Shown one piece after another: positions 27,762 to 49,900 of a stretch of DNA of 64,000 bases (its first letter is position 1; the number at the start of each line of letters is the position of its first letter). A program made the translations under genes and the position numbers. The notes under the pieces were generated by a model. That model saw only the letters and a program-made list of their open reading frames with translations. It did not search any database and was not told the origin of the DNA. This DNA is from Escherichia phage MN01. Where the stretch lies: sequence record MT129652.1; one strand, given 5' to 3'.

Positions 27762-28061
27762 ATGATTATGTCTGACGGAAGTTTAGTTAATCTGCAGAAT
27801 GTTGCACGTTGTATTATGGAAGCTGGTCTGAGGAAGGTACAGGAGCTCCCAGATAGCGACAGGAAGCGAAGTTACTTGTTGGCTGTAAGAGCATCAGCCA
27901 TGAGCATTAAGGCTGGCCAGAAGGTTCCTGAGGAGCGAATTGAAGCACTCCTTGCATTGATATACCATGGCCAAGAACATAAAGCTACCATGCGTAGTAT
28001 GAGAAAAATATTGCAGGAGATTGGAAATGACAAACTTCAAAGTGAATATGGAACTGTTTGA
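27762..28061 (+). CDS. hypothetical protein
   Basis: 99 aa; SD GAGGTG; promoter cassette upstream. Confidence 0.5.
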   Translation: MIMSDGSLVNLQNVARCIMEAGLRKVQELPDSDRKRSYLLAVRASAMSIKAGQKVPEERIEALLALIYHGQEHKATMRSMRKILQEIGNDKLQSEYGTV

Positions 28062-28230
28062 TAAGGCTATCCATAAAGAATACCGTGTTATCCAACGATT
28101 TTTTGATATAAGAGAAGCTGAAGAGTTTAAAGAACGCTTCAAAGAAATCCGTATTAAAATAGCTTCAGACACCGCAACAAAGGATGAACTTCTTGAAGTT
28201 GCAGAATTAATCAAACGTAACATAAAGTGA
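28027..28230 (+). CDS. hypothetical protein (rIIA.1 position)
   Basis: 67 aa, alternate frame overlapping previous ORF end; uncertain. Confidence 0.3.
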   Translation: MTNFKVNMELFDKAIHKEYRVIQRFFDIREAEEFKERFKEIRIKIASDTATKDELLEVAELIKRNIK

Positions 28231-28237
28231 GAAAAAC

Positions 28238-30472
28238 ATGATTTTAGAAACTGAAAAGGAAACAATCCTTGGTAATGGTGCCAAGGCATCAGCATTCACA
28301 ATCCAGGCATCTCCAAAGGTGTTTAAGATTCTGACCAGCGACCTTTACACAAATAAGGTGCGTGCAGTTGTTCGTGAGCTGATTACCAATATGATTGATG
28401 CTCATATGCTCAATGGCTGTCAGGATAAATTCATTGTCCAAGCTCCTGGTGAACTGGACCCACGTTTTGTGTGTCGTGACTTTGGTCCGGGTATGAGTGA
28501 TTTCCAGATTCGTGGTGATGAAAATACTCCAGGTCTGTATAACAGTTTCTTTGCATCATCCAAGGCTGAATCCAATGATTTTATTGGTGGCTTTGGTCTG
28601 GGTTCTAAATCTCCGTTCAGTTATACAGAGACGTTTAGCCTGATTTCGTATCATGATGGCCAAGTTAATGGTTATGTCGCTTATATGGATGGCGATGGTC
28701 CACAGATTAAGCCGACCTTTAGCGAACCAATGAAACCCGGTGACCGTACGGGGATTGAAGTTGTTGTCCCGGTTGATAGTAATGATTTTGGTAAGTTCCG
28801 CCACGAGATTTCATATATCATGCGCCCATTTGCTGGACTGGCTGAAGTACAAGGCGTAGGCGAAATTAATTACTTCCCGGAATTTGATGATTATTATGCT
28901 CCAGAGCGTATTGATTATAGCAGCCCAGAACGTTATGGTCTTTATGCAATTTACGGTGGAATTGTTTATCCAATTGCCGACGGTTATACAAAGAAAACCT
29001 GGATGACCGCCAAAAATGATGTTGTCTTTATTAAGTTCCCGATGGGTTCGTTGGATATTGCACCTTCTCGCGAAGCATTATCACTGGATAAACGTACGGT
29101 CGCAAATATCGTTGAACGTATTGAATCCCTTGATAAGAAAGTCATGGAAGATGATTGTAAGAAATGGCAGGAATCAGAATGTATCCGCCACACGTATCGC
29201 GAATTACAGAGTCTGAGTTATGAAGCTCGTAATTTTCTGAAAGCTCGTAATGCTGAAACGAAATTTACGAAATCGCAATTGACCTTTAACCAGATGTATG
29301 AAATGTTCGAGCTGGACAAAGACCTTATTAATGCCGGGGTTGTCTATGATATCTATAGCACTACCCGTCTGAAACGTCTGCGTAACTCAAGCTCGAACAC
29401 GAATACTGCAAGCCTGACGAGCATGTTTGGTATTCAGAATAATACCTTGAACATTGTTATTGACGATGCTAAAGGGCGAATTGCGATGATTCGGGGCATC
29501 AGTTCAATGCTGTATGACACCAGCGCGAAAGCCAAAAAGCTCAAAGCATCTGGTAAAGTCCCGACTGTACAAGGTAGTAGTCTATTGTTCGTTGACCCAA
29601 CCAGCGAAATTCAAACACGTCTGATGGTTCAACTTCAAGAACGATTTAAAGGCGATACAGTTAATATCTATCGTACGTCTGAACTGACCGCCCTTGTAAA
29701 AGACTGGATTCCGGTTGCTGACCCGAAAGCGCGCGTTAAGTCAAAGACTCCATCATTGATTCGTTGGACTAAAACTAATGGCAAATGGCAGTCTGTTGAA
29801 GAATTTACATGTGCAGCTGATGCAGAGGAAATCGATGGTTATGCTGTATTCATTAACCGCAGTAGCATTTCCCCGTTGAATCAAGAATATGGCACCACGA
29901 CCTTCGGGACCCAGACATTGTGTAAACTGGCAAACCTGTTGGAAATCAATGAATTCTGTGTTATTCGTCCACAGCTTCAGAAAAAGGTTACCAAGCTGGC
30001 GCAGTGTGATTGTTTGATTGAAGCTGCAGTCAATCGTTATGTGGAATTGATTGATTCAGTTGATGCGGACCAGTACATTGCCGCTTCAAGCCGTTCGCGT
30101 TATTATATTCCTATCCTGTCTGAATATGCGGAACTGAATTTTATGTTCAAGTATTTTTATGCAAAAGATGTTCAGAAAGATGTGAATACTGACTATGCCG
30201 AACTAATGCAGTTCAATAAGTTCTTTGCTTATAACGCATATAACAGTGGAACGGTTGATAAGACCATGCAGGAAACTCTGGTCCTTTGTAATAAGATTTA
30301 TGACGACCTGACCAAAAACGCTTCGGTAACAAGTGATAAAATGGTTTTTGAATTTGAAAAGAATCACCCGATTGTTTCACACTTTTTATATAACCGTAAC
30401 GCCATGTCAACTGAACAAGTACAGAACGTTGCTCAAATCATGAAGGCCGTGGAAGCGGCCAATAAGGAATAA
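28238..30472 (+). CDS. rIIA: rIIA protein (GHKL-ATPase-like, membrane-associated)
   Basis: 744 aa; N-terminus matches recalled T4 rIIA (TEKETILGNG, VRELITNMIDAH). Confidence 0.9.
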   Translation: MILETEKETILGNGAKASAFTIQASPKVFKILTSDLYTNKVRAVVRELITNMIDAHMLNGCQDKFIVQAPGELDPRFVCRDFGPGMSDFQIRGDENTPGLYNSFFASSKAESNDFIGGFGLGSKSPFSYTETFSLISYHDGQVNGYVAYMDGDGPQIKPTFSEPMKPGDRTGIEVVVPVDSNDFGKFRHEISYIMRPFAGLAEVQGVGEINYFPEFDDYYAPERIDYSSPERYGLYAIYGGIVYPIADGYTKKTWMTAKNDVVFIKFPMGSLDIAPSREALSLDKRTVANIVERIESLDKKVMEDDCKKWQESECIRHTYRELQSLSYEARNFLKARNAETKFTKSQLTFNQMYEMFELDKDLINAGVVYDIYSTTRLKRLRNSSSNTNTASLTSMFGIQNNTLNIVIDDAKGRIAMIRGISSMLYDTSAKAKKLKASGKVPTVQGSSLLFVDPTSEIQTRLMVQLQERFKGDTVNIYRTSELTALVKDWIPVADPKARVKSKTPSLIRWTKTNGKWQSVEEFTCAADAEEIDGYAVFINRSSISPLNQEYGTTTFGTQTLCKLANLLEINEFCVIRPQLQKKVTKLAQCDCLIEAAVNRYVELIDSVDADQYIAASSRSRYYIPILSEYAELNFMFKYFYAKDVQKDVNTDYAELMQFNKFFAYNAYNSGTVDKTMQETLVLCNKIYDDLTKNASVTSDKMVFEFEKNHPIVSHFLYNRNAMSTEQVQNVAQIMKAVEAANKE

Positions 30473-30473
30473 T

Positions 30474-31451
30474 ATGTTTAATATCAAATGTATGTCTAAA
30501 GCCGAACAAGCTGATGTGGTCCAGATGTATTCAACGGGCAATTATACCCAGCCTGAATTGGCAGAATATTTTGCTGTGTCCGTTGACACCATTCGCCGCG
30601 TTTTGAAAAATGATAAAGAATCAAAATTAGCTAGAACCATTTCCGCATCACTGAAAGCAGCTGTTGGTGTGGCGATTAATGCTCCGGTGACAGTAACGGT
30701 TGAAGTCCCGGTTGCTGATACAATCGGCGGTAGCCGCCCGGAAATCGTATGGAACGCATCAAGCAAATTCGTTTCCATCACCGAAGGCCGCACGGTCTGG
30801 AACGCAACAAAAGACCATAAACACTTTGATGATATTATTCAGGCATTGATTGAATTCCGGTATGAAGATGCTATCGAGTTTATCTCTATCAAAGCTGCAG
30901 TGCAAAAATATGTGAAAGGTGATGTGCGTATTGAAGGTGGTAGCCTGTTCTATCAGGGAATTGAACTGCGCTCTGGTTTGGTTACTCGTATCATCGATTC
31001 AATGCAAAATGGCGAAGACTTTGAATTCTATCTGCCATTCCTTGAAAATCTCCTTGAGAACCCGAGTGAGAAAGCTGTACAGCGTTTGTTTGACTTCTTG
31101 GTTGCTAACGATATCGAAATCACCGAAGATGGCCATTTCATCGCCTGGAAAATGGTTCGTTCAACCTACAAAGATTGCCACTCAAATACATTCGACAACA
31201 GCCCTGGTCAATATGTTAAAATGCCGCGCTCTCGTGTGAATGACAATGACGAACAGACCTGTTCAACTGGGCTGCACGTTTGTTCTAAAGGTTATATCGG
31301 AAGTGGCTTTGGTCATGGTGATGGGCGCATCGTATCCTGTAAAGTTCACCCGCGCGATGTTGTAAGCATCCCGGTGGATTATTCCGATAGTAAGATGAGG
31401 GTTTGCGGTTACCTGGTTCTTGAAGATGTGACCGAACGTTTCAATGATTAA
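30474..31451 (+). CDS. rIIB: rIIB protein
   Basis: 325 aa; long blocks match recalled T4 rIIB (GDVRIEGGSLFYQ, FEFYxPFLENLLENPS, VHPRDVVSIP). Confidence 0.88.
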   Translation: MFNIKCMSKAEQADVVQMYSTGNYTQPELAEYFAVSVDTIRRVLKNDKESKLARTISASLKAAVGVAINAPVTVTVEVPVADTIGGSRPEIVWNASSKFVSITEGRTVWNATKDHKHFDDIIQALIEFRYEDAIEFISIKAAVQKYVKGDVRIEGGSLFYQGIELRSGLVTRIIDSMQNGEDFEFYLPFLENLLENPSEKAVQRLFDFLVANDIEITEDGHFIAWKMVRSTYKDCHSNTFDNSPGQYVKMPRSRVNDNDEQTCSTGLHVCSKGYIGSGFGHGDGRIVSCKVHPRDVVSIPVDYSDSKMRVCGYLVLEDVTERFND

Positions 31452-31935
31452 ACAAACAATTGCTAAAGATGGCTCGGCTCGTGGTATTGTCCACGGGCTA
31501 GGTCACACGCCTGAATACATTGTATGGATTGGCATGAAAGCTCGGTGTTGCAATCCAACACATATTAGTTATTCTCGATATGGCGGTCGGGGTATCACTG
31601 TTTGCGATGAATGGCTGCATGATTTTGAAAGATTTTATACAGATATGGGGCCACGACCCACTGACAAACATCAACTTGACCGAACAGATAACGATAAAGG
31701 GTACTCTCCCGATAACTGCAGATGGGTTAGTCCAGGCGAGAATGCTTTAAATAAGCGCCCGTATAATAACAACAAGTCTGGATTTAAAGGAGTCTCGTTT
31801 GATAAACGAGCTTTGAATAAACCATGGCGAGCCACTATTATGCGAAATAAAAAACAAATTCAAGTCGGAGCTTTTGCAACTCCAGAAGAAGCAAATGAAG
31901 CTCGATTAAAATATATGGAAGAACACAATGTCTAA
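31444..31935 (+). CDS. HNH-like/AP2-domain endonuclease (free-standing homing-endonuclease-like gene)
   Basis: 163 aa; YGGRGI.VC..W, LDRxDNDKGYxPDNCRW (HNH_3-like), C-terminal AP2-like SGFKGVSF..WRA; overlaps rIIB stop. Confidence 0.6.
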   Translation: MIKQTIAKDGSARGIVHGLGHTPEYIVWIGMKARCCNPTHISYSRYGGRGITVCDEWLHDFERFYTDMGPRPTDKHQLDRTDNDKGYSPDNCRWVSPGENALNKRPYNNNKSGFKGVSFDKRALNKPWRATIMRNKKQIQVGAFATPEEANEARLKYMEEHNV

Positions 31936-32137
31936 AGAAATGTTAGGTTTCCAAGCACGTGTAGTTGAAGAATATGACCAGCTGGTTTTGAAAATCAATG
32001 CTCTTGAAGAGTTTATCAAGGGTGGAGTTTTTGAAACTCTTGATATCCGTCAACAAGGTCTTTTGATTGCCCAACTGGATGCGATGGGCGCATATGCTCA
32101 TGTACTGGCAATCCGTATCTCTTATTTTGGTGAATAA
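31928..32137 (+). CDS. hypothetical protein
   Basis: 69 aa, helical. Confidence 0.45.
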   Translation: MSKEMLGFQARVVEEYDQLVLKINALEEFIKGGVFETLDIRQQGLLIAQLDAMGAYAHVLAIRISYFGE

Positions 32138-32140
32138 ATT

Positions 32141-32410
32141 ATGATTAAGCATTTCAATGTGTCAGACCGTGACATCAAAGTTTCAAATCTCCGGGGTCAC
32201 CATTATGCAGGAATAGTTTACTGTGGTAAGCTCATCAAGCATGAAGGTGATGTTCACTATGGCTGGTTGGAATGTGATGAAGTAGTTGTTGGGGAATTCC
32301 CTGACCCGGATTCTGATACATTTGATGCTAATGACCGTTTGTACTATGGCGAGCTTCATATCCGGGGAATCGTCGGTATCGATGAGGTAAAAGATGATTC
32401 AGAAGAGTAA
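32141..32410 (+). CDS. hypothetical protein
   Basis: 89 aa, acidic C-terminus. Confidence 0.45.
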   Translation: MIKHFNVSDRDIKVSNLRGHHYAGIVYCGKLIKHEGDVHYGWLECDEVVVGEFPDPDSDTFDANDRLYYGELHIRGIVGIDEVKDDSEE

Positions 32411-32987
32411 AACATGGGAGCATCTGAAAAAGATGCCCTCCTTTCTTTATACAAAAGAAGACTTAACCCCTGAATCTCTACAAAAGATTGTAGACACAGC
32501 CAGGTATTCATTGCGTAAAGACCCAGGTCAAGACCGTGAGCAAGTCATGCAAAGATGTATGGTGGCTACAATGGCCGAACAAGCTATTGCTAAATGGACC
32601 TCCGGCTTTTTATGTGGCGGCGATGAAGATTACGATAATCCTTATTCCTTTGCATTTGATGTAGTTTCGAAGGAAGGAGTAAGAATCGAAGTCAAGACCC
32701 ATCAGTCTGGTTCCAAATGGATATCCGTGCATACTGGCCACCAGGGTGATTATCCACATGGTTACGGGATTAATCTTGGTCCTTTTATGCAGCACAAGCT
32801 TGCCGACCTTATGATTATGCTCGATGTAAAAGAGACTCTCAAAGGTTATAGATTTAAACCAAAATTCCTTGCTGGACCTGGTGCTTTCGTTCCTGAGTCT
32901 GGTCTTGTGCAGAAGTCACAAGGGGATGGCTGGTACCTCCGTTCTTGTTCAGAAGAAAAATTTCCCTATCACCGGTTTACAAGCTGA
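32394..32987 (+). CDS. hypothetical protein with PD-(D/E)xK-like motif (possible nuclease)
   Basis: 197 aa; AFDVV...RIEVKT resembles D...(D/E)xK core; near where T4 has denB; unverified. Confidence 0.5.
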   Translation: MIQKSKTWEHLKKMPSFLYTKEDLTPESLQKIVDTARYSLRKDPGQDREQVMQRCMVATMAEQAIAKWTSGFLCGGDEDYDNPYSFAFDVVSKEGVRIEVKTHQSGSKWISVHTGHQGDYPHGYGINLGPFMQHKLADLMIMLDVKETLKGYRFKPKFLAGPGAFVPESGLVQKSQGDGWYLRSCSEEKFPYHRFTS

Positions 32988-33004
32988 ACCAACCATGTAA
33001 TAAT
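32976..33004 (+). promoter_or_regulatory. early promoter (GTTTACA type)
   Basis: GTTTACA, 17 bp, AATAAT with TG two bases upstream. Confidence 0.45.
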
Positions 33005-33032
33005 GTCCTCACACCAACAAATGAGGACATTA
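33001..33032 (+). promoter_or_regulatory. perfect 11-bp stem hairpin sequestering the SD of ORF 33035
   Basis: TAATGTCCTCA-(10 nt loop)-TGAGGACATTA; GAGGA SD lies in the 3-prime arm, ATG 3 nt downstream. Confidence 0.6.
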
Positions 33033-33034
33033 TC

Positions 33035-33310
33035 ATGGAACAAGTTACTACTCAAAACATCAAACAAATTCTTATTCAAGCACTCAAAAACAACAACATC
33101 AATTTTCCAACCCATGAAATTTTTGATGTGGTATTCAACGAAGTCCAGGGTCAAGTTGCATATTATGACGTTATCATTTATCTTTCAGAATTTGAAGTCT
33201 ACCACCTGACTGAAATCGCTTTCTATCTCTATCGTGGGACTGCAGATTTTACCGGGGTCGTGAATGCAGTTGGTGCATATAAAGAAGTTAAAGAACAAAT
33301 GCACAATTAA
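33035..33310 (+). CDS. hypothetical protein
   Basis: 91 aa from ATG just after a perfect 11-bp hairpin covering the SD. Confidence 0.5.
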   Translation: MEQVTTQNIKQILIQALKNNNINFPTHEIFDVVFNEVQGQVAYYDVIIYLSEFEVYHLTEIAFYLYRGTADFTGVVNAVGAYKEVKEQMHN

Positions 33311-33321
33311 TTAAAAAGTAG

Positions 33322-33350
33322 TGTACATCAGTATGGAGTCTATGTATAAT
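33322..33350 (+). promoter_or_regulatory. early promoter cassette
   Basis: AAAAGTAGTGTACA, 17 bp, TATAAT; leader CCATACTGAGTTACCAAA. Confidence 0.55.
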
Positions 33351-33386
33351 GATTCCATACTGAGTTACCAAATACTGGAGAATAAA

Positions 33387-33542
33387 ATGAAACCTGCTCA
33401 ATATGCAATGACTTTATACCTTGAAGTTAATGGCGATATTACTGAATTTTTTAAATTAATGCAACAGCGCGGAAAAAGTTTTGCAGTTACTGAGCGTCAA
33501 TTTTACGCGTGTCGCAAAAATACATACAATCGTTATGCATGA
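33387..33542 (+). CDS. small hypothetical protein (51 aa)
   Basis: SD GGAG; promoter cassette upstream; track ORF 33321 trimmed. Confidence 0.4.
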   Translation: MKPAQYAMTLYLEVNGDITEFFKLMQQRGKSFAVTERQFYACRKNTYNRYA

Positions 33543-36010: not shown

Positions 36011-37390
36011 ATGTCTGACGTTTTAAGTATGATGTCCAAACAGTTCAGTGATTCTATGGGGACCCTTAACCCACGCAGTTTAAAAGACATTATTGATGTG
36101 GAAGCATTGTCATATGCTATCTACACTGTGGAAGGTCGTGCCATCCCAAACATGATTGATGGTTTTAAACCAGTTCACAGATTTGTTATGGCGAGAGCAT
36201 TAGACCTGGCTCGCGGTGATAAGAATAAATTCCATAAGGTTGCATCCATCGCAGGGGGCGTAGCTGATTATGGTTATCACCATGGCGAAGCATCAGCGGA
36301 AGAAGCAACTTCTGGTCTGGTCGCAACATATAAAAATGAATATCCTATGTTTGATGGGCAAGGTAACTTTGGTTCCAGAATGGTTCCAGAAGCATCATCA
36401 GCTCGTTATGTATTCGCAAGGGTTTCAAAGAACTTTTACAACCTGTTTAAGGATACAGAATATGCTCCGGTCCATCCTGATGAAGAACATAAGCCTCCTG
36501 CTTTTTATCTTCCTGTTATTCCTACTGTATTACTTAACGCCACTTCTGGGATTGCTGTTGGCTTTGCTACTGATATCCTTCCTCATTCGTTCCAGGACGT
36601 CAAGGAAGCTGTTAAAGCTATCGTGGAAGGTCGTGAGCCGGTTGCTCCGAAAGTAAAATATCCAGAATTCCGTGGTAAAGTTGTTGAGCTGGAAGAGCCC
36701 GGTAAGTATGAACTTCATGGCACGTACAAAATGACCTCCAGGACTCAAATGGAAATTACTGAAATCCCAGTTCAATGGAACCTGGAAAAGTATACAAGTA
36801 AAATCCTGGACCCGCTGGAAGAGAAAGGTTTTATCACCTGGAAAGATAACTGCGGCGAGCATGGTTTTGGGTTTAAGATTAAATTCCGCAAAGAATACAA
36901 GTTGGATGGCACTGAAGAAGAGAATCATGAGAAAATCATGAAAGACTTTGGTCTGATTGAGAAGCTCTCCCAGAACTTAACTGTGCTTAACCACAAAGGC
37001 AAATTGGCTGAATATACCAACACGCTTGACCTGATTCGCGATTTCGTTGATGTCCGTAAGACTTATGTTCAAGTGCGAATTGACAGTAAGATTAAAGAAA
37101 CTGAAGCGGCATTTAAACTGGCCCGGGCAAAAGTCTTCTTTATTAAAGAAGTGATTGATGGTAAGGTTGTTATCCAGGGGAAACCTCGTAAGAAGTTGAT
37201 TGAGGAGCTCCAGGCGAGTGAAATATATGGCGATTATGCAGAGAAGTTAGTGGCGATGAACATCTACCATATGACCTCTGATGAAGCTAAGAAGCTTGCG
37301 GATGAAGCTAAGGCTAAGAAAGCTGAGCATGAGTACTGGAAGACAACTGACGTTAAAACTGAATACCTTAATGATTTGGAGGCTCTATGA
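36011..37390 (+). CDS. 52: DNA topoisomerase II medium subunit gp52 (GyrA-like)
   Basis: 459 aa (T4 gp52 about 440); GyrA-like N-terminus IPNMIDGFKPVHR; synteny. Confidence 0.9.
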   Translation: MSDVLSMMSKQFSDSMGTLNPRSLKDIIDVEALSYAIYTVEGRAIPNMIDGFKPVHRFVMARALDLARGDKNKFHKVASIAGGVADYGYHHGEASAEEATSGLVATYKNEYPMFDGQGNFGSRMVPEASSARYVFARVSKNFYNLFKDTEYAPVHPDEEHKPPAFYLPVIPTVLLNATSGIAVGFATDILPHSFQDVKEAVKAIVEGREPVAPKVKYPEFRGKVVELEEPGKYELHGTYKMTSRTQMEITEIPVQWNLEKYTSKILDPLEEKGFITWKDNCGEHGFGFKIKFRKEYKLDGTEEENHEKIMKDFGLIEKLSQNLTVLNHKGKLAEYTNTLDLIRDFVDVRKTYVQVRIDSKIKETEAAFKLARAKVFFIKEVIDGKVVIQGKPRKKLIEELQASEIYGDYAEKLVAMNIYHMTSDEAKKLADEAKAKKAEHEYWKTTDVKTEYLNDLEAL

Positions 37391-45862: not shown

Positions 45863-46991
45863 ATTGTTTTTCTCGTAGTTCGGCTGCGTATATCTTGCCG
45901 GCTCTCGGAGCTTGTGCATCTGGGAATGTTACAATTGTATTACCTGTATTTGTTGCATCGTTTGCATATGACATCCTTATGCCGTTGACACCAAATTCAG
46001 CTGGTTTGAATGCCGAGTCGCCTCTGGTTATCTCACCAATAACAATATTACGTATTGACCCTGTTCCAGTAGCTACAGTTCTTGATGTTACTACCGTAAA
46101 GCCATCAGCTCCCGCTGGAATCTCGACATATCTTTCGAAACTCGCCCAAGCCCCGGCTGGAACGTTTGCTGCAATATCGATGTTTGTATTTGATATTGGA
46201 GCAGTGCTAGGGCTTTTAAAGAATCGAACCGAAGTCCTTACAGTTCCGGCGGCTTTCAGTTCTGCGTCAAATGACATCTGAAACTTCAAGTAAAGCACAT
46301 CCAAAGGTAAAAGGTTATAGGTATCCATAGGAGTCACCAGGTCCTCTGTGGGAAACCTTTTAATTGTGGTTGGTGTTCCATCACCTGTTGATGAATACGT
46401 GCTCTCGTCTTCCGTTATGCGCACAGGATAGCCTGTTGCCCCTATATCACTAAAGGTATCATAAACGACTTCAAGCGGAGTCGAAACATCCTCAACTAAC
46501 TTCCCGTCATTATACTTAACATGCTCCGAAACAATTACGTTCCTGCCGGTTATGTAAAAAGCCGAGTACGATGTATCAACTTTATCAATCAACCATTTCT
46601 CTGGGAATGCTCTTGAACCACATTTACGGAACCAGTCAATTAATGTCTGTGATGCATTTAGTTTCCCAGAAGAAATAAAAGCAATCAATCTTCCAGCTGG
46701 TACAGATTCCACAAAGGTGATTAATGCCTGACTGATTACATCGTGTGAGCTAGTTAATGAATAGTTTTTTGTGTTAACAATTTTATTCGTAGTTGTATCA
46801 ATTTCTAATAGAGTCAAACCATTACCAAAAGTAGTTGGTCCGATTCGTTCATCCTGGAATTTGATATACGATTTCACCGTGGAAAGAGTACAGCTCCCTG
46901 CTATACTCATTTTAAATTTAACGGCATTATTTTCTGATATAACTGGCGTTTGGACATATCCTTGTCCAAACTCTGCCATAAATTTTTCCAT
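45861..46991 (-). CDS. 35: long tail fibre hinge gp35
   Basis: 376 aa (T4 gp35 372), between 34 and 36. Confidence 0.7.
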   Translation of the reverse strand: MEKFMAEFGQGYVQTPVISENNAVKFKMSIAGSCTLSTVKSYIKFQDERIGPTTFGNGLTLLEIDTTTNKIVNTKNYSLTSSHDVISQALITFVESVPAGRLIAFISSGKLNASQTLIDWFRKCGSRAFPEKWLIDKVDTSYSAFYITGRNVIVSEHVKYNDGKLVEDVSTPLEVVYDTFSDIGATGYPVRITEDESTYSSTGDGTPTTIKRFPTEDLVTPMDTYNLLPLDVLYLKFQMSFDAELKAAGTVRTSVRFFKSPSTAPISNTNIDIAANVPAGAWASFERYVEIPAGADGFTVVTSRTVATGTGSIRNIVIGEITRGDSAFKPAEFGVNGIRMSYANDATNTGNTIVTFPDAQAPRAGKIYAAELREKQ

Positions 46992-46999
46992 ATTACCTC

Positions 47000-49900
47000 T
47001 TATTCAATCCATTCAAACTTAACGGATTTAGTGGTCGGGTCTGGGATGATACGTACGTTACCGATACGTAACCAATCGAGAATGGTTAAGTTCCCCATCG
47101 TTGTGTTGTCAGCCGGTAATGCACCAACATCCTCTGCAGACGGAGGGTTATCCGCGGTGTAAACCATTGCGAAAGTCGTCCATGCGGATTTATTTTTCTG
47201 CCATGTACGAGTATAACGAATAGTACCACCGTTCAATCCAGTTGGATAGCAAACCCAATCTTGATAACATGAATCCAGCGTATTACCAAACTGAGTCAAT
47301 GTACCAGGATATTTAATTTGTTTGTCACGAACTGAATAGTCAAACCATGTTCCGCGTAGTTTCTGTCCAGAGCTACCTAATACTTCATCACCAAGTGTAC
47401 CATCATCATTACGATAACGAATAGCAGGCGAGGCGAAAGTTCCGTTTTCAGTTAACCAACCAGAAGCATTCCAAACTTCATCAGTTACCCCAGCAGGTTT
47501 AGTTTGAACCGTATCAATGTTTACTTGACGTTTTAACTTCATTGTCCAATAACCAGGGAACTGGCTATAAGTCGCTTCATCATTGATATCGACAGACCAG
47601 AAGCCAACAGTATCAGCAGTCGGAGCTTGTGCAATAAGACTCGGTTTCGTACCAAATACACGGACCGGAGCATTCACACGGAGTACACCAGACATTGTAT
47701 CACCAGCCTGGTTAACAAAGTTTCTATCAACAATTTCTACTGCGTTTTTCTCGGTCAGAACTTTAAATGCACCGCCACCATTTGCTATGATATTGCCAGC
47801 ATCAAGAGTTTTGAGCACTAAATTCTGTGAGTTATCACCCAGAGACAAAGTTGCGCCAGAAGCTTCACCTGTTGTGGTTGCAATAGTACGACCATTTAGA
47901 ACGTAATTATTTTTGGCTTGAACATCGTTTCCGGCGCTGAGGTTGTTCAATACAGCAACATTACCCGAGGCGGTGTTTAATGTCAATACGTTAGTCGTAT
48001 CGCCGATAGTCATTGTCGTTCCAGTGGAAGGAGCAGTGATTTTCCACTTGTTAGTTCCGTTAACAACATTCACAGTCCCGAACGTCGAAGTGCCAGCCGT
48101 TACATCAGTAAACACTGCAGTGCTCGTCGATACAACCGGAGCAGAGATATTTGTCTGTTTAGTGAGAGTTAATGCACCTTCAACAGTCTGGGCAATATCA
48201 CGACGAATAAATTGGGTCGAATCGAGACTATCAAGTTTTTCAGCATTAACAGCCATCGCATTTATCGGTAAGAAGTTTTGCAATACGCGGTTTAATTCGT
48301 AAGGCGAAACTGCATATCCAGATTTTGCATAGCTAACCAGTTTACTTGGGTCCGGAGTATACACACCATTTGCATATGTAAATCCTGCACCTGTCGTTGT
48401 AGTTGCGGCCGAAGTAGCTGCACCAGAAGATAAACGAACAAATCCTCGCAGTGTTTCAGATGATTCCCAGGTGGTTTCCGTTTGTGCAATATATTTCAGC
48501 GCAGACGGACTAATGGCCAAGACTTTTGATGTACCAGCGGTTGCTTCGGCGTTTGTCGCAATGCGAACAATACCTTCGGCATTTTCAGTAGCTTTTTTCG
48601 ACATCAATTTAAGCGGGGTAACGATTGTTTTATCGTCAGTGCCGGTATTGACTTCGCCCTGAGTTGCTAATCTTGCTGTACCACGTTGAGTCTCATTTGC
48701 TTCAAGAATATTCAGGCTATAATGGTCCCAGAGCGTCCCTGTTTCTACTAAACCACTTAATGCATTAACAGAAGTACGAGCAGTATTATTAAATCTATTT
48801 TTAATTTTTAATGGAGTTGAGATACGAGTATCATCAGTTCCAGTATCAAATTCTGATTGCGTAGCAATCTCGGCTATGCCGGATAATGTTTCTGATGCTT
48901 TACGGTCATTTAACGTTTTAGGAGTTACAGCTCTGGTATAATCAGTTCCTGCATTTGTTTCCGCCTGAGTAGCAATCTCGATTAAACCAATACGGGAATC
49001 AAGAGCAGTTTTGCGATGCAACATTTCTGGAGTAACGACTGCGTTTGCCCAGTCAGATTGAGAAGTACCGGCGATTACTTCACTTTCAACCGCAAGAATA
49101 ACCGCGCCTTGCTGAGTGTAAGTAGCTTTGTACTGGTCAAGAGCTTTCGGAGAAACAACCAGATTAACCGTATTTTTATTATAAACGTTTGTACCATTTA
49201 ATTCACGCGAAGCAGCAGGAGTTGCACCAGTCGTTGAAACGTAAGTTACAATGCCGGATAGCGATTCTGAACCCTGACGAGCTTGCAGTTTCTTTGGAGT
49301 TATAATTGTGGTATCATCTACACCTGCATCAGTTTCTTGCTGTGTGGCGAGTTCTGCGAGCCCACGTCTCGTTTCTGTTGCCGTACGTTCATTGAGTTTT
49401 TTCGGAGAAATAATTACATCATCAACAAATGCAAAATCACTGTTCTGATTTACTTGGGCAGTCGTTGCGATTCTGGCAATGCCTCGTTGGTTCTCTTTAG
49501 CAACACGGTTGGCTAAAGTCTGAGGGGTAATTGCGAGTTCTTTCTCTGGGTTATTTTCATGGTCAACGTTTGCCTGAGTCTGGTTTGCCAGAGCAATAAC
49601 ACCAAGACGTGCACGCGTGGAATCATTTAATGAGTCAACTCGTTCGACAGTCGGAACGTTCTGAGCGACAACCCAATAACTTTTTCCAGATACTTTATCT
49701 TCTGCATATGACAATTCAATAACCGGAGTATAACTGATATTACCGTTAAAGGTCAATGAATCAACCAACACCCAAGTTGTATCCGGTGGATACTCGGAAC
49801 GTTTAGGGAATTGCAGTAATTTAATGTCAGATGCAATCTTATCGCCAACAGCAGCTCTTATATTAACAGTCTGTGATTTACGGAGATAGTTCAGTGCAAT

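Follow-up and report, generated by a model that had tools for sequence, protein, structure and literature searches.

A putative HNH-AP2 homing endonuclease gene at the rIIB/denB.1 junction of some Gaprivervirus phages, with proposed PacI-like catalysis

The 64,000-nucleotide stretch of Escherichia phage MN01 analysed here (sequence record MT129652.1; the window) comes from a member of Gaprivervirus (VR7/SP18 T-even phages), to whose members the region of interest is 94-96% identical. It carries, in order, rIIB, an endonuclease gene, denB.1, a DUF7418 gene and denB (Table 1). The 163-aa endonuclease ORF was confirmed from both the ORF listing and the sequence. As a preliminary description of the window had stated, its start precedes the rIIB stop by 8 nt, and all three protein motifs quoted there are present. 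In Morganella phage MP1, the rIIB stop and endonuclease start overlap by 1 nt, and the start/stop overlap in both phages suggests that the endonuclease may be translationally coupled to rIIB; RNA structure around the endonuclease start codon was not significant. At the other end of the gene, carriers have an upstream denB.1 ATG at 31928 that overlaps the endonuclease stop, the ancestral ATG being at 31940. The protein is 100% identical to its counterparts in TH54 and DCP80 and 98.8% identical to that of VR7, for which RefSeq gives the name "HNH endonuclease"; a literature search covering VR7, MP1 and the YGGRGI motif turned up nothing specific to this endonuclease gene. An Rfam scan of 30400-33100 returned no match and no intron was detectable in the window, so this copy is free-standing; no second copy occurs within the window. 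A foreign base composition was considered and rejected, as the GC content of the gene (0.41) matches that of the window (0.405). Inside the ORF, at 31741-31767 on the plus strand, lies a motif resembling a T4-type middle promoter (MotA box AATGCTTTA, 12-nt spacer, TATAAT). Its MotA box is the sole one in 28000-33400, and the motif is one of five of its type on the window's plus strand; denB.1 and denB could be transcribed from it. The MotA/TATAAT motif is not conserved in the MP1 endonuclease copy.

Table 1. Features of the rIIB-denB region in the window
Feature	Coordinates	Strand	Basis or remark
rIIA	28238..30472		
rIIB	30474..31451	+	phrog_609, E 8e-103
Carrier-linked substitution block, rIIB 3' end, 52 nt	31383..31434	+	five occupied loci aligned with five empty ones
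Inserted segment relative to empty-site relatives	31435..31939	+	505 nt in place of 41 nt (same alignment)
Putative homing endonuclease gene, free-standing, 163 aa	31444..31935	+	orthologue of VR7ORF292c / YP_004063973.1
Atypical His-Me (HNH-like) nuclease domain, N-terminal, aa 17-108	31492..31767	+	
C-terminal AP2 DNA-binding domain, aa 112-161	31777..31926	+	
denB.1 homologue	31928..32137	+	Pfam crAss001_48, E 7e-19; VR7 annotation
DUF7418 gene	32141..32410		between denB.1 and denB
denB (endonuclease IV)	32394..32987	+	phrog_1360, E 3.4e-80; denB in annotated relatives

The preliminary description read the ORF as a free-standing HNH-like/AP2 endonuclease gene, and the protein analysis bears this out, with the nuclease half proving to be an atypical His-Me domain. 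PHROG "HNH endonuclease" families match the protein at E = 8e-59, and the AlphaFold2 model is confident (pLDDT 88), with a beta-beta-alpha(-metal) fold present in its N-terminal domain. Comparison with HNH_3 and AP2 profiles, proposed in the same description, gave a divided result. The N-terminal domain has no Pfam or NCBIfam HNH match (HNH_3, PF13392: none at E <= 1). The C-terminal AP2 domain is confirmed: the Pfam AP2 match falls below threshold (E = 2e-4), the family profile matches the AP2 domains of WRI1 (E = 2.2e-9) and TEM1 (E = 1.4e-5) in the PDB, and aa 112-161 adopt the three-strand-plus-helix fold. A single-sequence search against solved structures gave nothing meaningful, a domain-only profile of the N-terminal half found no nuclease among PDB sequences, and the family profile gave among PDB nucleases a weak match only, to the HNH core of I-HmuI (E = 0.44).

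The N-terminal domain presents D79-R80, Y87, N91, N100/N103, a GGRGI loop and Cys35, Cys54 and Cys92. Among the 121 homologous sequences examined, R80, Y87, N91 and N103 are each found in all, position 79 is Asp in 110 and Glu in 9, position 100 is Asn or Gln, the cysteines are kept in 120 (C35), 117 (C54) and 117 (C92), and the GGRGI loop is nearly invariant. Strand 1 ends without the general-base His, whose position is taken by Arg80. That the first His is replaced (D-R rather than D-H) had been noted at the outset, with a doubt about activity; the replacement stands, whereas degeneration of this single copy can be rejected. With Arg80 in 121/121 homologues, the missing His is a conserved family trait, which does not by itself argue for inactivity. 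In canonical HNH_3-AP2 proteins of T4-related and other phages (comparison set GAP161, PHB13 and CHB7), the pair at positions 79-80 is D-H and there is no Tyr at position 87, while Asn occupies positions 91, 100 and 103 in both groups; the canonical T4-related HNH-AP2 proteins match Pfam HNH_3 at E = 2e-12 to 8.5e-6. Across seven aligned canonical and atypical proteins, D79, N100 and N103 are invariant and N91 is present in six, position 91 being Tyr in ICP1 gp59. The Arg/Lys-type proteins (the 163-aa ORF, MP1, G1 ORF058 and ICP1 gp59) all have Tyr87, which the His-type proteins lack. Judging from these alignments, the domain retains the metal-binding Asp, structural Asn and helix Asn of a His-Me finger.

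Overall, the protein is an ordinary member of the "IPA-HNH"/HNH-AP2 class. IPA-HNH homing endonuclease genes combine an atypical HNH missed by Pfam with AP2, and ICP1 gp59 is a founding member (Barth et al. 2023, PMC10448857). This protein is homologous to the 163-aa family (hhalign 97.5%, E = 5e-12; BLASTP E = 3e-6). As in ICP1 gp59 and gp209, an N-terminal HNH-like domain too divergent for HNH_3 is joined to a C-terminal AP2 domain and encoded by a free-standing gene. In ICP1 gp59, too, the His is missing and is replaced by Lys while the Tyr is kept, but that protein is longer (272 aa) and has no GGRGI loop. T4 has no IPA-HNH genes and other phage groups are named as enriched (PMC10448857); VR7 and MP1 are absent from the supplementary tables of that study, which reports no biochemistry for the class. 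HNH-AP2 endonucleases had already been counted in T4-related phages (Petrov et al. 2010, PMC2993671) and the orthologue already carries its RefSeq label, so the gene itself adds little. RB16/RB43/RB49-type HNH-AP2 proteins share the two-domain layout, are free-standing in T4-like genomes and align with the 163-aa protein from the D-H/D-R strand through AP2, but they have the canonical D-H, no loop Tyr and an HNH_3 match, and they lack the N-terminal helical "RC...YGGRGI...C..W" part. Nicking HNH homing endonucleases such as I-HmuI (PDB 1U3E) likewise pair a monomeric HNH with a separate DNA-binding module; I-HmuI differs in being intron-encoded, keeping the catalytic His and using other DNA-binding modules. 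T4 MobE, SegF and SegG exemplify "intronless homing", in which free-standing genes between conserved genes are patchily distributed and their flanks travel along. The present gene resembles them in its free-standing place between conserved genes, its patchy occurrence among relatives and its linked flank, although MobE, SegF and SegG belong to other nuclease families or subfamilies (canonical HNH, GIY-YIG).

The domain family has tblastn matches in 1,978 phage records, and the N-terminal domain profile matches 126,772 clusters at 50% identity. The best matches to this profile (P0121, P0122, P0125, P0138, P0158) hold 2-4 tandem copies of the domain per protein, with CapR-like Cys motifs and HTH-like segments between them; R, Y and N are kept in most copies, and in one copy the Tyr has become Phe. 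Such tandem copies could yield double-strand cuts from nickase units, or could be the sign of a DNA-binding module. The 163-aa protein starts just before the nuclease-like domain and has no N-terminal CapR zinc-ribbon domain, the C.C.CG...SCGC motif of longer homologues being absent from it.

The unusual feature of the protein is a nuclease domain without the usual catalytic His which, in the predicted model, appears most like PacI among solved structures. PacI is the known active His-Me enzyme without a general-base His; its metal is bound by Asp and Asn, and a loop Tyr is positioned as the base (PMC4081073, PMC5714182). A "DR" motif with the Tyr after it has been described as belonging to its catalytic residues (PMC11529989). 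D79-R80 followed by the invariant Y87 fits these descriptions. Foldseek searches against the PDB gave weak matches only, among them PacI (E = 3.9). PacI is the best structural match of the N-terminal domain, which at the level of the model points to a similarity of fold; with the domain profile against PDB sequences, PacI was absent at E <= 10. PacI (PDB 3M7K/3LDY; His-Me group 20) differs in having two Cys4 zinc sites, where the 163-aa family has only three conserved Cys, and an extra His that is not conserved in the family. It is also a homodimer acting on a palindromic 8-bp site, has no AP2 domain, and is a chromosomal restriction enzyme rather than the product of a phage homing gene. An active enzyme with PacI-like chemistry is plausible but unproven. 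More tentatively, and at a little short of even odds, we suggest that the Arg80/Tyr87 branch of "HNH" proteins cuts by PacI-type tyrosine chemistry, with PacI a domesticated relative. If so, Arg80/Tyr87 would be no defect but the mark of a very large, biochemically unstudied "HNH" branch, and PacI would be a domesticated relative of phage homing endonucleases, not a one-off oddity. Thousands of phage proteins annotated as "HNH endonuclease" have no catalytic His and share the conserved PacI-like D-R...Y...N...N set. Were these proteins active, tyrosine-based HNH chemistry would be common in phages; were they inactive, a large share of "HNH endonuclease" annotations would denote DNA-binding proteins.

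The 163-aa protein could instead be a nuclease-dead, sequence-specific DNA-binding protein, that is, a repressor or silencer made from endonuclease parts and encoded by an accessory gene spread by ordinary recombination, on the model of the CapR or CapR-AP2 "CasPR" anti-CRISPR repressors. A catalytic His missing from every homologue and the absence of a Pfam HNH match would fit such a protein, as would the co-option of endonuclease AP2 and CapR modules as transcriptional silencers (bioRxiv 10.64898/2026.02.23.707548; PMC10448857), the CapR-like Cys motifs of longer homologues and the existence of tandem multi-copy proteins. However, active-site residues are lost in His-Me derivatives that have become inactive, Smad MH1 for example (PMC5714182), whereas here D79 (at the frequencies given above), N91 and N103 are strictly conserved together with an Arg/Tyr pair as described for PacI. 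The 163-aa protein also has no CapR domain, and its gene follows the population pattern of a homing gene described below (linked tract, identical gene in divergent backgrounds, decayed copy, intron-borne homologue). We regard a dead nuclease as unlikely and favor a homing endonuclease.

In T4, the gene order is rIIB, denB.1, denB, with nothing between rIIB and denB.1. The preliminary description proposed either a mobile insertion or a replacement of denB. Replacement is rejected, since denB.1 and denB both lie downstream in the same order as in T4, and insertion is borne out by empty sites and sharp boundaries: judging from the alignment, the endonuclease gene is an insertion between rIIB and denB.1. 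The occupied state was found only in the window, VR7, TH54, DCP80 and phage 212, and the intact empty junction in 29 records (about 24 distinct phages). Among the roughly 28 related phages of the collection, carriers number only 4, and the gene is thus not a conserved syntenic core gene. When the rIIB 3' junction was compared with that of relatives lacking the gene, the inserted segment was seen to replace 41 nt that read AATTCTAA-ATTAAT-CGGGGCTTCGGCCCC-TAATGAGGCTTT in the empty site. These comprise the last rIIB codons with the TAA stop, a GC-rich hairpin with a UUCG loop (CGGGGCTTCGGCCCC) and the Shine-Dalgarno/ribosome-binding site of denB.1. The right edge of the insertion falls exactly at the ancestral denB.1 ATG, and the left edge lies somewhere within 31435-31451.

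Several signs of mobility accompany this junction. The nucleotide identity of the endonuclease gene is 99.2-100% among the window, TH54, DCP80 and VR7; in the carrier flanks, rIIB is 85-93% and the right flank 94-96% identical. The flanks do not group the carriers together: rIIB of the window is nearest to that of non-carriers, and DCP80 and 212 are nearest to SP18, itself without the endonuclease gene. The history of the gene differs from that of its flanks. The copy in phage 212 is 95.5% identical and has decayed, a 2-nt insertion inside the GGRG codons breaking the reading frame. At the left edge, each of the five carriers has the changes that make up the substitution block at the rIIB 3' end; of the five empty-site genomes, four have the alternative at every position and one, CJ20, is mosaic. 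These changes include a three-base switch of a Ser codon (TCC to AGT) and Asp to Glu in carriers, and both the AGT Ser codon and the LVLED motif recur at the rIIB end of MP1. We read the block as a putative co-conversion tract and/or an altered target that may be immune to cleavage. MP1, of the genus Gualtarvirus, has a 70%-identical endonuclease copy at the same site, directly 3' of rIIB. Outside T4-like phages, the nearest homologue (48% identity) is in Streptococcus prophage Javan129, where it sits between two halves of a lysin gene with group I intron matches on both sides (RF00028, E = 3.5e-6, below the gathering score). Taken together, the insertion polymorphism, linked flank tract, decayed copy and discordant histories support what appears to be a mobile insertion next to rIIB. 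At the Javan129 locus (L017, 2552-3525), the protein encoded by the group I intron that splits the lysin gene is 230 aa long and consists of a CapR-like motif, an Arg/Tyr HNH-like domain and an AP2 domain.

Patchiness of this kind might also record loss, if an ancestral accessory gene that was never actively mobile had been deleted in most lineages. The early region is variable, the GC content matches the genome, and the same position in MP1 could reflect ancestry. However, separate deletion events would not produce one and the same 41-nt junction, hairpin and ribosome-binding site included, in about 24 phages, the carriers are not each other's closest relatives, and an old gene would diverge as its flanks do, which differ by 4-15% while the gene stays 99-100% identical; we consider loss very improbable. 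Movement of a defunct endonuclease gene in trans, as reported for T4 I-TevIII and MobE, here by another phage endonuclease or by general recombination, is very unlikely: the missing His could mean inactivity and T-even genomes carry several other endonuclease genes, but the ORF is intact with all family-conserved residues kept in four of the five carriers, the sole truly broken copy, that of phage 212, shows the pattern that decay takes here, and PHROG annotation of the neighbours placed no other endonuclease gene next to the ORF.

Our preferred reading, to which we assign a probability of about 0.7, is that an HNH-AP2 (IPA-HNH) homing gene invaded the rIIB/denB.1 junction of some Gaprivervirus phages, with PacI-like catalysis proposed. 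We speculate that the endonuclease is synthesized at a low level through translational coupling to rIIB. During mixed infection, the AP2 domain would recognize a co-infecting relative's empty allele, binding it close to the rIIB 3' end or the intergenic hairpin, and the N-terminal beta-beta-alpha-metal domain would nick or cut the DNA of that allele. Recombinational repair from the carrier genome would then bring across the gene and some 50 nt of its left flank. Carriers would escape cleavage themselves, since in them the hairpin is gone and the end of rIIB is recoded as a result of the insertion. Catalysis would be of the HNH kind, modified as in PacI. D79 and N100/N103 would serve as metal ligands, with N91 bracing the loop; R80, which stands where the His usually is, would touch the scissile phosphate, and the general base or nucleophile would be Tyr87. 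Intronless homing in Gaprivervirus would then have a clear natural case in this locus, for which occupied, empty and decayed alleles all exist.

The hairpin that the insertion removes from the rIIB/denB.1 junction is not the only one of its kind: GC-rich hairpins with the GGGGC-loop-GCCCC pattern recur at window positions 1388, 10798 and 41792. The GC hairpin is doubtful as the sole target because similar hairpins occur at 1388 and 41792.

The DCP80 record (PQ671644.1, 140,978 bp) holds the occupied rIIB-endonuclease-denB.1 locus at 46747-47238 and also, at 97% identity, an empty-site junction at 37078-37217 on the other strand; the assembly is probably chimeric or mixed. Downstream of denB, window positions 33035-33307 on the plus strand are the orthologue of VR7ORF288c, annotated in GenBank as [quoted passage not shown]. 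This likeness was not reproduced (BLASTP E = 1.4); G1 ORF058 is instead homologous to the endonuclease at 31444-31935 (36% identity), and, from these comparisons, the GenBank note may be attached to the wrong gene. In phage pEC-M719-6WT.2 (L003, 2181-2501), where identity to the window drops to about 84% in the right flank, a different gene of 321 nt lies between denB.1 and denB, compared with the 270-nt DUF7418 gene of the window, and the denB.1-denB interval is a second variable spot of the region.
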